From Eledone cirrhosa (taxonomy: Eukaryota), in the NCBI GenBank assembly GCA_964016885.1, contig OZ024740.1, positions 415,152,001 to 415,216,000 on the forward strand: 64,000 nucleotides of DNA, read 5' to 3'. The position numbers and the translations under genes are program-made. The notes under the pieces are model-generated. The model ran no database searches, had not been told where the DNA came from, and worked only from the letters and a program-made list of their open reading frames with translations. Shown here in pieces: positions 49,721 to 58,104 of the stretch. The stretch's first letter is position 1. Each line of letters opens with the position of its first letter.

Positions 49721-50115
49721 TATATATATATATATATATATATATATATATATATATATATATATATATATATATATATATATATATATATATATATATA
49801 TATATATATATATATATATATACATCTATATATATATATATATATATATATATATATATATATATATATATATATATATATATATATATATATATAATAT
49901 ATATATATATATATTATTAATGTATCGGTAGATATATATCGGTAGATATATATATATATATATATATATATATATATATATATATATATATATTTATTTA
50001 AAATTGTTGGGTTACAACAAGTAAATATTTTATAACCGATATAAAGCACTCGACAAGTTTTTGGAGTAGATATACGATATTAAACAAATGGAAACTATAT
50101 TTATAAAACCATATT

Positions 50116-50181
50116 TATTTCATTATACATATTTCAGGGATACCATATTAAAAATATGGCATGCCTTCGTCAGATAAAATA
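50116..50181 (-). ncRNA. Type I hammerhead ribozyme motif (family A)
   Basis: Reverse complement of the 50328-50393 motif. Confidence 0.8.
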
Positions 50182-50327
50182 CAATATATAAACAGTTTTA
50201 TAAATAATTTTGACGTACCATAAATATAAGCGACCATTAAGATAGGACTACCAAGCCAGCCTCCTATCTTAATGGTCGCTTATATTTATGGTACGTCAAA
50301 ATTATTTATAAAACTGTTTATATATTG

Positions 50328-50393
50328 TATTTTATCTGACGAAGGCATGCCATATTTTTAATATGGTATCCCTGAAATATGTATAATGAAATA
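50328..50393 (+). ncRNA. Type I hammerhead ribozyme motif (family A)
   Basis: Stem I UAUUUUAU/AUGAAAUA; core CUGACGA; long stem II AGGCAUGCCAUAUU-UUU-AAUAUGGUAUCCCU; GAAA; minimal stem III; AUA cleavage triplet (predicted cut after 50385). Confidence 0.82.
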
Positions 50394-50463
50394 AATATGG
50401 TTTTATAAATATAGTTTCCATTTGTTTAATATCGTATATATATATATATATATATATATATAT

Positions 50464-50722
50464 CTAAGGCGAGTAAAATTCCCGAGATCCATGGACGAGT
50501 TCTCTCCAGCGGTCTCTGTCCCTCATTATCGCTGCCATGTCCTGCGTCTCCAACAGACCAGTATCTGTCCTTAGGGCATCAACATACGTTAACCTTGGTC
50601 TTCCTCTTCTAGTGTGTCCATGTAGGGGCTCCCAAAGGAGCACTGAGTGCAATGTCAACTCTGGATGTCGGTGAGCATGTCCAGCTAACCTCAGTCTCCT
50701 CTGTGTCACTTTTGAGCTGACT
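50464..50722 (-). mobile_element. 5'-truncated RTE-clade LINE 3' end with a (TA)n tail
   Basis: QRRLRLAGHAHRH..LLWEP.HG..RRGRPRLTYVD.L..DTGL...M.DRDRWR is an RTE C-terminal signature. The stop is followed directly by (TA)n. Confidence 0.85.
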
Positions 50723-50724
50723 TT

Positions 50725-51165
50725 TATACATATATATATATATATATATATATATATATGTATATATATATATATATATATTTATATATATACATATATA
50801 TATATATAATTATACATATATATATATATATATATATATATATATATATACACATATATATATATAAATATATACATATATATATATATATATATATATA
50901 TATATATATATATATATATATATATATATATATATATATATATATATATATATACATATATATATATATACATATATATATATATATATATATATATATA
51001 TATATATATATATATACATTATATATATATATATATATATATATATATATATATATATATATATATAAATATATATATATATATATATATATGTATATAT
51101 ATATATATATATATATGTATATATATATATATGTATATATATATATATATATATATACATATATA
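50725..51165. repeat. (TA)n microsatellite
   Basis: Long interrupted TA run. Similar runs at 49196-49287, 49719-49992, 53063-53122, 55166-55336, 56846-57235, 57681-58102 and 58582-58644. Confidence 0.97.
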
Positions 51166-51180
51166 GTTTTAATATAGATG

Positions 51181-51231
51181 AGATTCTACAGGACTAGAAC
51201 TGTTTCATTCTTTAGAAATCATCAGGAATCT
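51181..51231 (-). ncRNA. Type I hammerhead ribozyme motif (family C)
   Basis: Minus strand AGAUUC-CUGAUGA-UUUCUAAAGAAU-GAAA-CAG-UUCUAGUC-CUG-UA-GAAUCU. Stem I is 6 bp, stem III CAG/CUG, triplet GUA. Stem II is weak (U-U closing). Confidence 0.72.
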
Positions 51232-51428
51232 GGGTATCAAAAAATAAATATGGTATTTATAGGTCTCTACAAGTGGTAGGAGAGGGTGGGGAGTGGGATG
51301 GGTGAAGGTCATTGGTTGATAGAAAAGGGAATTCATTAAAAGCTAATTCTACAAAGCTATAGTTTATTTTTATTTATTTTTGTTTTTAGAGTAACAAAGG
51401 CAGACAGAATTCTATAAACAGGTTCAGG

Positions 51429-51950
51429 ATGGCAGCCAACCACAATTCTAAAAAATTAAATAAGCCAACCACCTCCGAACCCAATCCCCGGACTGGAGCT
51501 CTGTGTAATTGCCTAAATAAGGAAGCATGCCCACTTGAAAACAAATGCCTCACAAATGATATCGTATACAAATGCGATGTCATCTCAGGCACCGATGATT
51601 GCAAAAAAACTTACATCGGCATGACCTCCAACAACTTTAAGACCCGTTGGTATGCCCATACCCACTCCTTCAGAAGACCGGACAAATCAAACCAGACAAC
51701 ACTCGCCTCCTACGTTTGGGACCTCAAAAGGAACTCCACCCCCTTCACGCTTAAATGGAAAATACTCCAGAAAGCACGCTCTTACAACGGAGGACACAAG
51801 GGCTGCGACCTTTGTATTTCAGAGAGCTACGAAATTTTATTCGCCAAGGGCCCGCTACTGAACAAACTCTCTGAACACTGCCCGAACTGCATGCACAAGA
51901 ACTTTGCAACTTTCAAACACTTTAAGCCAGTGTTAAAGCCCGATGGCTAA
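51429..51950 (+). CDS. Penelope-like element GIY-YIG endonuclease domain (5'-truncated copy, no RT)
   Basis: CNC..CPL..CL...IVY..V...YIGMT..FKTRW..H..SF....T.LASYVW.LK....KWKIL..A..Y....CDLC..E..I....LN..SE..C.H is the PLE C-terminal endonuclease with Cys/His linker. A C-rich 3' UTR follows. Confidence 0.88.
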   Translation: MAANHNSKKLNKPTTSEPNPRTGALCNCLNKEACPLENKCLTNDIVYKCDVISGTDDCKKTYIGMTSNNFKTRWYAHTHSFRRPDKSNQTTLASYVWDLKRNSTPFTLKWKILQKARSYNGGHKGCDLCISESYEILFAKGPLLNKLSEHCPNCMHKNFATFKHFKPVLKPDG

Positions 51951-55060: not shown

Positions 55061-55125
55061 TATTTTGTCTGATGAAGGCATACCATAATTTAACTTGGTA
55101 TCCTTGAAATATGTATAATGAAATA
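55061..55125 (+). ncRNA. Type I hammerhead motif (family A) in a single pLTR-like end (~55003-55165)
   Basis: UAUUUUGU-CUGAUGA-AGGCAUACCA(UAAUUUAACU)UGGUAUCCUU-GAAA-UAUGU-AUA-AUGAAAUA, followed by the family A tail and (TA)n. Confidence 0.8.
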
Positions 55126-55628
55126 AATATGGTTTTATAAATATAGTTTCCATTTGTTAATATCGTATATATATATGTATATATATATATATATGTATAT
55201 ATATATATATATATATATATATATATATATATATATATATATATATATATATATGTATATATATATATATATGTATATATATATATATATATATATATAT
55301 ATATATATATATATATATATATATATATATATATATAAAACAAATAACGAAACGAAATTAAATTTCGTTTCGTTTGTAACTCACTTTTGTATGACTGACG
55401 CTTAAACAATTAAGTTAAAAATGTACATCCACATATGTATACTGAAATACTAGTATGCATATGAATACACACACGTATACATATGTAGATGTACCGAGTT
55501 TTTCACTGGTCACTTTACTGTGAGTGTCCAGCTATTCTGTATGTAAACACACAGACAAACCGGTTTTTAGAGTCATACTGGTTTTTGAGGAAACACCTTT
55601 CCTCTATTCTCCAGAAAGCCAGACAAGG

Positions 55629-55673
55629 AATATTGAACTAGTTTCGATGTTGTTACATCTCATCAGCAATATT
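55629..55673 (-). ncRNA. Minimal type I hammerhead (family E)
   Basis: AAUAUUG-CUGAUGA-GAUG(UAACAA)CAUC-GAAA-CUA-GUU-CAAUAUU. Stem III is the palindrome ACUAGU. Confidence 0.85.
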
Positions 55674-56094
55674 TACCTATCTTCCGGCCTCTCTAGAGAA
55701 TCGTAAAAGCACATATCGTTATATGCTTTTTCTATGAAAATTAGTAGTGGGCAGACTAATTTGCATAGAGCGTGAGTACGTACCGGTTCAACGGAGACGA
55801 TAAAAACAAATAACGAAACGAAATTAAATTTCGTTTCGTTTGTAACTCACTTTTGTATGACTGACGCTTAAACAATTAAGTTAAAAATGTACATCCACAT
55901 ATGTATACTGAAATACTAGTATGCATATGAATACACACACGTATACATATGTAGATGTACCGAGTTTTTCACTGGTCACTTTACTGTGAGTGTCCAGCTA
56001 TTCTGTATGTAAACACACAGACAAACCGGTTTTTAGAGTCATACTGGTTTTTGAGGAAACACCTTTCCTCTATTCTCCAGAAAGCCAGACAAGG

Positions 56095-56139
56095 AATATT
56101 GAACTAGTTTCGATGTTGTTACATCTCATCAGCAATATT
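56095..56139 (-). ncRNA. Minimal type I hammerhead (family E)
   Basis: Identical to 55629-55673, 466 nt away. Confidence 0.85.
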
Positions 56140-56575
56140 TACCTATCTTCCGGCCTCTCTAGAGAATCGTAAAAGCACATATCGTTATATGCTTTTTCTA
56201 TGAAAATTAGTAGTGGGCAGACTAATTTGCATAGAGCGTGAGTACGTACCGGTTCAACGGAGACGATAAAAACAAATAACGAAACGAAATTAAATTTCGT
56301 TTCGTTTGTAACTCACTTTTGTATGACTGACGCTTAAACAATTAAGTTAAAAATGTACATCCACATATGTATACTGAAATACTAGTATGCATATGAATAC
56401 ACACACGTAACGAAACGAAATTTAATTTCGTTTCGTTATTTGTTTTTATCGTCTCCGTTGAACCGGTACGTACTCACGCTCTATGCAAATTAGTCTGCCC
56501 ACTACTAATTTTCATAGAAAAAGCATATAACGATATGTGCTTTTACGATTCTCTAGAGAGGCCGGAAGATAGGTA

Positions 56576-56620
56576 AATATTGCTGATGAGATGTAACAAC
56601 ATCGAAACTAGTTCAATATT
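56576..56620 (+). ncRNA. Minimal type I hammerhead (family E), inverted copy
   Basis: aatattgctgatgagatgtaacaacatcgaaactagttcaatatt read directly on the + strand. Confidence 0.85.
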
Positions 56621-57277
56621 CCTTGTCTGGCTTTCTGGAGAATAGAGGAAAGGTGTTTCCTCAAAAACCAGTATGACTCTAAAAACCGGTTTGTCTGTGT
56701 GTTTACATACAGAATAGCTGGACACTCACAGTAAAGTGACCAGTGAAAAACTCGGTACATCTACATATGTATACGTGTGTGTATTCATATGCATACTAGT
56801 ATTTCAGTATACATATGTGGATGTACATTTTTAACTTAATTGTTTATATATATATATATATATATATATATATATATATATATGTATATATATATATATA
56901 TGTGTATATATATATATATATATGTACATATATATATGTATATATATATATATATATGTATATATATATATATATATGTATATATATATATATTTATATA
57001 TATATATATATTTATATATATATATATATATATGTATATATATATATATGTATATATATGTATATATATATATATATATATATATATATATATATATATA
57101 TATATATATATATGTATATATATATATATATATATATATATATATATATATATATATATATATATACATACATATATATATATATATATATATATATATA
57201 TATATATATATATATATATATATATATACATATATACAATATTAAATAAATGGAAACTATATTTATAAAACCATATT

Positions 57278-57343
57278 TATTTCATTATATATATTTCGGG
57301 GATATCATATCAACAATATGCTATGCCTTCCTCAGACAAAATA
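57278..57343 (-). ncRNA. Type I hammerhead motif (family A)
   Basis: Reverse complement of 57485-57550. Confidence 0.75.
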
Positions 57344-57484
57344 CAATATAAACAGTCTTATAGATAAATAGATTCGACATACCGTTATAACACCGACTTC
57401 CATTTGAAGAGGTTTAAGCTTCAAATGGAAGTCGGTGTTATAACGGTATGTCGAATCTATTTATCTATAAAACTGTTTATATTG

Positions 57485-57550
57485 TATTTTGTCTGAGGAA
57501 GGCATAGCATATTGTTGATATGATATCCCCGAAATATATATAATGAAATA
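57485..57550 (+). ncRNA. Type I hammerhead motif (family A)
   Basis: UAUUUUGU-CUGAGGA-AGGCAUAGCAUAUU(GUU)GAUAUGAUAUCCCC-GAAA-UAUAU-AUA-AUGAAAUA. Confidence 0.75.
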
Positions 57551-58104
57551 AATATGGTTTTATAAATATAGTTTCCATTTATTTAATATTGTAAATATAC
57601 TCCAAATATTTGTCGAGTGCTTTTATATCAGTTATAAATATTTACTAGTTGTAACCCAACAATTTTAAATATAACTTTCCATATATACATATATATATAT
57701 ATATATATATATATATACATATATATAAATATATATATATATATACATATATATATATATATATACATATATATATATATATATACATATATATATATAT
57801 ACATATATATATATATATATATACATATATATATATATATACATATATATATATATATATATATATATATATATATATATATATATATATATATATATAT
57901 ATATATACATATATATATATATATATATATATATATATACATATATATACATATATATATATATACATATATATATATATATATAAATATATATATATAT
58001 ATATACATATATATATATATATATACATATATATATATATATATATACATATATATATATATATATACATACACACACACACACACACACACACACACAC
58101 ACAT

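Follow-up and report, generated by a model that had tools for sequence, protein, structure and literature searches.

Head-to-head hammerhead-bearing end modules of a high-copy repeat family in Eledone cirrhosa, likely Penelope-like insertions

We analysed a stretch of 64,000 nucleotides (nt) from the genome of Eledone cirrhosa (GenBank assembly GCA_964016885.1, contig OZ024740.1, positions 415,152,001 to 415,216,000 of the forward strand), called the window below; coordinates count from its first letter. The window is AT-rich DNA of animal type, in which two satellites are followed by a tail of repeats. A first-pass annotation, made from the letters alone, had pointed out in this tail a repeat, designated family A, with two palindromes and one single end that carry hammerhead ribozyme motifs. 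Here we describe family A, whose copies are likely insertions of a Penelope-like element (PLE).

Anatomy and hammerhead motifs of family A

The palindromes, designated P1 and P2, and the single end consist of the following parts.

49995-50069, minus strand: P1 tail, 75 nt, on the left arm only, ending in (TA)n
50070-50247, minus strand: P1 left arm, a family A end module with its sense on the minus strand; hammerhead core starting at 50173
50248-50261, plus strand: P1 loop, 14 nt, upstream continuation of the right, tail-less arm
50262-50439, plus strand: P1 right arm, tail-less, ending in (TA)n; core at 50336
50328-50393, plus strand: type I hammerhead of the P1 right arm, with an 8-bp stem I, core at 50336, 13 of 14 pairs in stem II, GAAA, and a predicted cut after 50385
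54981-55167 (about), plus strand: single family A end with no adjacent inverted copy; core at 55069; tail-less, ending in (TA)n
57235-57409, minus strand: P2 left arm, tail-less; core at 57335
57410-57418, no strand assigned: P2 loop, 9 nt
57419-57593, plus strand: P2 right arm; core at 57493; two more stem II pairs broken
57594-57671, plus strand: P2 tail, 78 nt, on the right arm only

This layout agreed with the earlier description of two diverged palindromes with arms of ~175 bp, loops of 14 and 9 nt and one longer arm; the single end, placed there at 55003-55165, was slightly longer. The P1 arms are 178 nt each without mismatch, and the P2 arms are 175 nt each with one mismatch (174/175 identical). 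P1 and P2 share 80% identity over their length; the first 40 nt of the arms reach 58%, and the part from the hammerhead onward 86-89%. The single end is 81-83% identical to the palindrome arms. The arms of both palindromes begin 74 nt before the core. Their tails are 87% identical and share a common breakpoint. (TA)n abuts all five family A ends and would mask any target-site duplication there. The flanks of the palindromes past the TA tracts are not mirrored.

No family A partner of the single end was found in the 1.9 kb upstream. One of the three insertions therefore lacks the inversion, which the first-pass annotation had called obligatory. No family A tandem was present within the window, and an exact 27-nt family A pattern gave 0 matches in metagenome contig and viral contig collections.

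Each palindrome carries a sense and an antisense hammerhead motif, as had been proposed. Every arm contains an 8-bp stem I, CUGANGA, 30-31 nt forming stem II (annotated before as ~30 nt), GAAA, a 2-bp palindromic stem III within a self-complementary 8-mer and UA at the predicted cut site. The type I core elements (CUGANGA, GAAA and UH) are thus in register with stems I-III, with a weakened stem II in P2. The cores of the three copies (CUGACGA, CUGAUGA and CUGAGGA), all with the 8-bp stem I, bear out position 7 as the variable core position.

Within 47256-64000, a strict type I descriptor detected 7 motifs; 100 dinucleotide shuffles gave 0.01 on average and never more than 1. These were both P1 arms, the single end, three copies of the neighbouring family C (see below) and a relative at 58738; P2 escaped the descriptor because of its broken stem II pairs. 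In the whole window Rfam gave no match that reached the gathering score, and among the matches listed (150 of 159, E up to 10) none linked family A to a hammerhead model. The Rfam miRNA matches in the window were rejected as generic hairpin or TA-repeat matches.

Stem II of family A is 13-14 bp. The annotation had stated that it changes in sequence and keeps pairing. The first part was borne out; the second was overstated, as pairing was kept through wobble changes only. Across the three window copies, to which this covariation test was limited, 0 of 13 pairs changed on both sides, 3 changed on one side and 5 were broken in one copy. Pairing as good as that observed arose in 163 of 500 shuffles.

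We compared the motif with described hammerheads; here and below, statements on cited publications refer to the parts of them that were covered. All 26 Hydra-clade rows of PMC8557442 have a stem II of 3-7 bp, in contrast to family A. The PLE hammerheads of PMC4209133 have a longer-than-usual stem II of 7-8 bp, about half that of family A, and a conserved G10.1-C11.1 pair, where P1 and the single copy have A-U as the closing pair. In Naiad, the half-cores are spaced 35-50 nt (PMC8557442). We use the term long-stem-II hammerhead for a stem II of 13-16 bp that is missed by Rfam and does not fit the spacer of 7-17 nt in a published descriptor. No publication on PLE hammerheads with a stem II of 13-16 bp was found in a search that left aside many subscription papers and the supplements of other papers. 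The long-stem-II hammerhead thus indicates that part of this class escapes standard searches.

A second long-stem-II hammerhead lies at 58676-58746 on the minus strand, with 36 nt between the core halves, a 16-bp stem II and a palindromic stem III. It has the architecture of family A, differs in sequence and faces (TA)n. No open reading frame (ORF) was found in the 1.1 kb upstream of this hammerhead (58738), and Pfam was empty in those frames.

Abundance, variation and junctions in public reads

Four of 17 listed sequencing runs, none of the 17 being recorded as RNA, were compared with the 281 nt at 49995-50275 at 80% likeness. X15 consists of raw reduced-representation reads, X1 is a contig set from another study, and X6 consists of contigs of unrecorded kind; contig depth was not taken as copy number. 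The stretch was hit by 35,164 of 12.47 million X15 reads (0.28%), by 5,090 X1 contigs and by 892 X6 contigs. X13, which carries another organism label and of which about 1/100 was read, gave 1 read. Family A is a high-copy family.

Variants were evaluated in 39 of 75 rows, those listed. Core position 7 was not C in 89% of X15 reads, in line with the window copies, and no variant was listed at C3, U4, G5, A6, G8, A9, G12, A13, A14 or U16.1. A15.1 varied, at 10.6% of the depth in X6 and in 0.2% of the reads in X15. In total, 17 of 66 motif positions varied; the probability of at most one among the 11 core positions was 0.16, or 0.035 without the site seen in X6 only. All three read variants in stem I were wobble-compatible, and a stem III variant (31%) turned the 8-mer into a perfect palindrome. 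Two stem II variants at 23-24% disrupted a C-G pair. Consensuses of loose ends retained CUGAUGA, and their stem II letters differed in ways that may be compensatory, with phase not given. The ribozyme-like variation claimed by the first-pass annotation is therefore plausible, not proven.

The 50 nt at 50086-50135, 3' of stem II, had an X1 contig depth about nine times that of the core and few variants, which suggests a motif common to related subfamilies, perhaps a protein-binding or reverse transcription start region.

X15 reads left the element into AT repeats at 50070 (6,420 reads) and at 50001-50002 (3,736 reads). Across many family A copies, the tail thus separates two discrete 3' ends that lie about 70 nt from each other.

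Fifteen of 24 joints were listed, and 10 of these 15 were strand switches. Four strand-switch joints lay upstream of the core (50191/50227, 50195/50239, 50198/50227 and 50227/50227), and each of them had 2-3 read starts. Joint 50195/50239 was found in X15 and in an X1 contig, that is, in two independent studies. Position 50227 was reused in three joints, and 50227/50227 is loopless. We infer at least four further head-to-head junctions, with their geometry taken from read direction. Joints 50109/50190, 50117/50201, 50104/50115, 50080/50115 and 50070/50083 were set aside because they lie at the stem I hairpin, near a 3' end or have a single start. Joint 50228/50275 was also set aside, since the compared stretch includes 14 nt of the second arm and any loop-bearing copy yields this joint.

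The 29 nt at 50247-50275 were carried by X15 reads as one piece, attached to another partner than in P1. According to the joint table this partner is cut at 50082, which we read as a near-full arm joined to a truncated partner. One X1 contig and X15 reads contained the P1 loop within a different junction.

Affiliation of family A and formation of the palindromes

Two endonuclease remnants and a separate hammerhead-bearing repeat are relevant to the affiliation of family A.

51390-51950, plus strand: GIY-YIG (Hydra-type endonuclease) remnant 1, with CxCX5C, CxxC and CxH motifs
55337-56846, no strand assigned: family C, a 466-bp non-coding hammerhead unit, 2.3-fold in tandem, with an inverted copy of 438 nt and a tail of 66 nt on one side
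63501-63998, minus strand: GIY-YIG remnant 2, with the same motifs and a single stop in frame; a short 3' region and then a TA tract follow

The two remnants are 33% identical to each other, and CxCX5C occurs in both and in 113 of 150 relatives. A word-based search gave no longer relative among 150 candidates; longer relatives were recovered by a HMMER search. The long relatives have a C-terminal endonuclease and YRDD; six relatives have about 700 amino acids or more, and in five of them DKT occurs near residue 115. Pfam named no reverse transcriptase (RT) in these six.

The anatomy of family A makes it likely that its copies are PLE insertions of the inverted-pLTR (pseudo-long terminal repeat) type, as the first-pass annotation proposed, with no ORF left. 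P1 and P2 have an adjacent inverted 5'-truncated copy, absent at the single end; the 3' tail is one-sided and optional, and a sense hammerhead lies near the 3' end. An inverted 5'-truncated copy and a tail of 30-40 nt are frequent in PLE insertions, and how PLEs build inverted copies is described as an open question (PMC8557442). The complex insertions of endonuclease-bearing (EN+) PLEs (PMC8557442, PMC3846280) share with family A the head-to-head arms, outward 3' ends, tail at one end, hammerhead near the 3' end and microsatellite target. They differ in that family A has no attached ORF in the window and very short stubs on both sides.

Within the PLEs, family A may belong to the Hydra clade, judging from the proximity of the endonuclease remnants. 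(TA)n is preferred in 26 of 27 families of this clade (PMC8557442), as it is at the five family A ends and in the 6,420 X15 reads that run into AT repeats at 50070. Hydra-clade hammerheads are type I with a variable position 7 and a self-complementary stem III, as in family A (PMC8557442). According to the supplement of PMC8557442, Penelope-13_HM, a (TA)n-targeting element of this clade, has an inverted copy, and both of its strands bear a hammerhead. Family A itself is not linked to a Hydra ORF, though both CxCX5C remnants lie in the window.

Family A also resembles the minimal type I hammerheads of PMC4209133 in its conserved core, its tiny palindromic stem III that implies a dimer, its high variability and its opposite-strand pairs. 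In PLEs such pairs lie 100-700 bp apart, and the minimal hammerheads cleave weakly and as dimers (PMC4209133). Non-LTR retrozymes (bioRxiv 10.64898/2026.07.22.740005), for which an origin from PLE pLTRs has been proposed, are non-coding and carry a type I hammerhead, as does family A. They are defined by head-to-tail tandem hammerhead units, which family C has and family A lacks in the window.

We regard it as fairly probable that each palindrome is one dead-on-arrival insertion of a PLE 3' end module in (TA)n, consisting of two 5'-truncated copies placed head to head, in which the hammerhead of the active parent is predicted to be silent. The P1 loop bears on how the copies were joined. It matched the upstream sequence of the single copy at 8 of 14 positions in register, versus 3 of 14 when reversed (p about 0.01). 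This match and the intact 50247-50275 piece in the reads indicate that the loop belongs, as sense template, to the tail-less arm. No such loop would result if a first strand started at the tail and then folded back; therefore, two priming events are favoured over simple fold-back.

A possible course is as follows. An endonuclease-bearing PLE protein, probably of the Hydra clade, acting on truncated or non-autonomous RNA, would nick both strands of the TA target. Each nick would prime reverse transcription, one from the tail start and one from the tail-less start, with one RNA or identical tandem copies as the template of both cDNAs. The cDNAs would halt at different 5' points and then be joined, their length difference giving the loop. 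In vitro, an Anolis PLE protein, predicted to act as a dimer, nicks AT-rich DNA on both strands and extends each of them, and two RT start sites define the tail (PMC11167929). Ribozyme-like conservation would stem from selection on parent RNAs, in which two sense copies could form a dimeric hammerhead.

The first-pass annotation had further proposed that each fold-back arose separately because the loops differ. A separate origin agrees with arms that are 99-100% identical within a palindrome versus 80% between palindromes and with the additional junctions in the reads. The argument from the loops did not hold: as the first 40 nt are 58% identical and the P1 loop is templated, a loop difference is expected from subfamily divergence alone.

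Several observations weigh against our reading. Family A has no attached ORF: Pfam gave no match in six frames of 53125-55004, and the 150 relatives of the neighbouring endonuclease gave no tblastn match between 52,000 and 58,900. Anatomy is consequently the ground for PLE membership, and proximity that for the Hydra assignment. The family A tail (68-78 nt) is about twice the 30-40 nt of EN+ PLEs (PMC8557442). Depletion of variants from the core is statistically weak (p 0.03-0.16 on 39 of 75 variant rows), and the 34 nt 3' of the motif are as free of listed variants as the core. The raw reads seen contain junctions comparable to those of the palindromes and the tail breakpoint, but the exact P1 and P2 junctions were not seen among them in the comparison with 49995-50275, and no listed contig spans this P1 stretch. 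The loop argument comes from one palindrome, P1, and the family C loop of 102 nt, on the tail-bearing side, is compatible with either mechanism. Random truncation alone does not predict that the arms of both palindromes start 74 nt before the core or that the centre of family B, another repeat of the window, is used twice. Finally, in folding predictions the active dimer was not favoured over the monomer folds for the single end and P2.

The second arm could instead have been made by fold-back self-priming of one strand, either cDNA or antisense RNA, with one tail removed by endonuclease resolution. Head-to-head palindromic PLE junctions have been interpreted in this way, as self-priming on an antisense template (PMC3846280). 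This explains the identity of the arms (178/178 and 174/175) most simply and fits family C, the 50227/50227 joint, the use of 50227 in three joints and the repeated loopless centre of family B, whose reuse suggests preferred sites or self-priming. On the other hand, a strand begun at the tail would need a template switch to acquire the P1 loop, which is template of the tail-less arm, and the reads imply a near-full arm joined to a partner truncated at 50082. We consider self-priming unlikely.

A mobile palindrome, as in miniature inverted-repeat transposable elements (MITEs) or fold-back elements, with arms equalised by gene conversion, would account for the common arm start 74 nt before the core and for the one centre common to the family B palindromes. 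MITEs and fold-back elements have symmetric termini and a fixed internal structure. Family A has asymmetric ends, junction positions that vary in the reads and a single end, and the P1 loop recurs in a different junction in an X1 contig and X15 reads. Read-through RNA of such an element would also be nearly all double-stranded. This origin is very unlikely.

We evaluated the predicted folding of transcripts across P1. In a head-to-head palindrome the antisense arm is made first, from whichever side transcription enters. In equilibrium folding of the growing P1 transcript, arm-arm pairs reached 0.999 before the core was complete, and the ribozyme stem II had a probability of 0.0. The whole palindrome is predicted to form a hairpin of about -285 kcal/mol versus -29 to -33 for one arm. 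Stem III had a predicted probability of 0.0 in monomers, and the active P1 dimer was predicted at -32.2 versus -28.6 for two monomers. The folding thus predicts an inactive monomer and makes a P1 dimer plausible. With the antisense arm first, stem II at 0.0 and stem III needing a second sense copy, cleavage would be pre-empted and would not compete with double-stranded RNA formation as the first-pass annotation had suggested. A read-through transcript is thus predicted to form a perfect hairpin of about 175 bp without self-cleavage, and any small RNA from it would be a by-product.

The same hairpin might suggest palindromes retained as regulatory switches, in which self-cleavage opposes double-stranded RNA that feeds small interfering RNAs (siRNAs) or editing; siRNAs do arise from Penelope inverted repeats in transgenic Drosophila (PMC3681739). 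However, the antisense arm is always transcribed first, stem II has a probability of 0.0, and a transcript holds one sense ribozyme of a dimer-dependent type. The locus is a repeat cluster with no sign of selection on the window copies. Such a switch has an even slimmer chance than a mobile palindrome.

Fold-back artefacts of sequencing or assembly, with which the missing exact P1 junction, the lack of a listed spanning contig and another base than in P1 at 50267 in 27 of 28 X15 reads would agree, are scarcely credible given flanks that are not mirrored past the TA tracts, a tail on one arm only with a breakpoint seen genome-wide, P2 arms that differ at one site and the comparable junction 50195/50239 in two independent studies.

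The insertion layout of family A is already known; its long stem II and its tail of about 70 nt are mildly new. Tentatively, family A may be a non-coding derivative of a PLE that is very abundant and carries a long-stem-II hammerhead not described before, and its thousands of junctions may record two separately primed cDNAs with RT sites about 70 nt apart. If true, the junctions would supply genomic evidence that a PLE dimer performs twin target-primed reverse transcription and would speak against the published self-priming model. With its many copies, two sharp 3' ends and short templated loops, the family makes it possible to count directly to which arm the loop belongs. Its value therefore lies in material for a mechanistic census and little in a new system. 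If transcribed, the hairpins could supply a family-wide small RNA, as in Drosophila Penelope (PMC3681739).

Neighbouring repeats in the window

The family C insert combines a tandem, an inverted copy and a one-sided tail in a single insertion and has two sense ribozymes in tandem. Its tandem units, inverted copy and tail are all 100% identical. Rfam matched it to Hammerhead_HH9 (E 2e-6), under the gathering score. Family C is a retrozyme-like unit with the full PLE insertion layout; its architecture is that of family A, and it is a separate family.

Family B is present at 49288-49718, 52606-53062 and 58381-58582, as two palindromes and one single copy. Both palindromes share one loopless centre, at which the similarity of the single copy begins, and one of them has a tail of about 35-40 nt. 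The descriptor used found no hammerhead in family B.

Two further element ends were observed. At 51166-52150 a minus-strand hammerhead end (core at 51225) is joined head to head with the plus-strand Hydra-type endonuclease remnant, and the two sides of the junction showed no mutual similarity by blastn. The end at 53125-53235 (minus strand) faces (TA)n and carries a hammerhead-like motif with a U3-A8 variant core. This end and the single family A end, 1.9 kb away, are arranged head to head, with no TA tract between them.

The large satellites of the window are two in all. The first (1-15085) has 43-bp units, and the second (21814-47255) has 34-bp units in about 748 copies at 95% match. Short interspersed nuclear element (SINE)-like repeats of the window presumably resemble those of octopus. 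A broken long interspersed nuclear element (LINE) at 59883-63005 on the plus strand encodes an AP endonuclease, RT and PHD finger, and we take it to be RTE-like. A short LINE 3' fragment (50464-50781, minus strand) adjoins P1.

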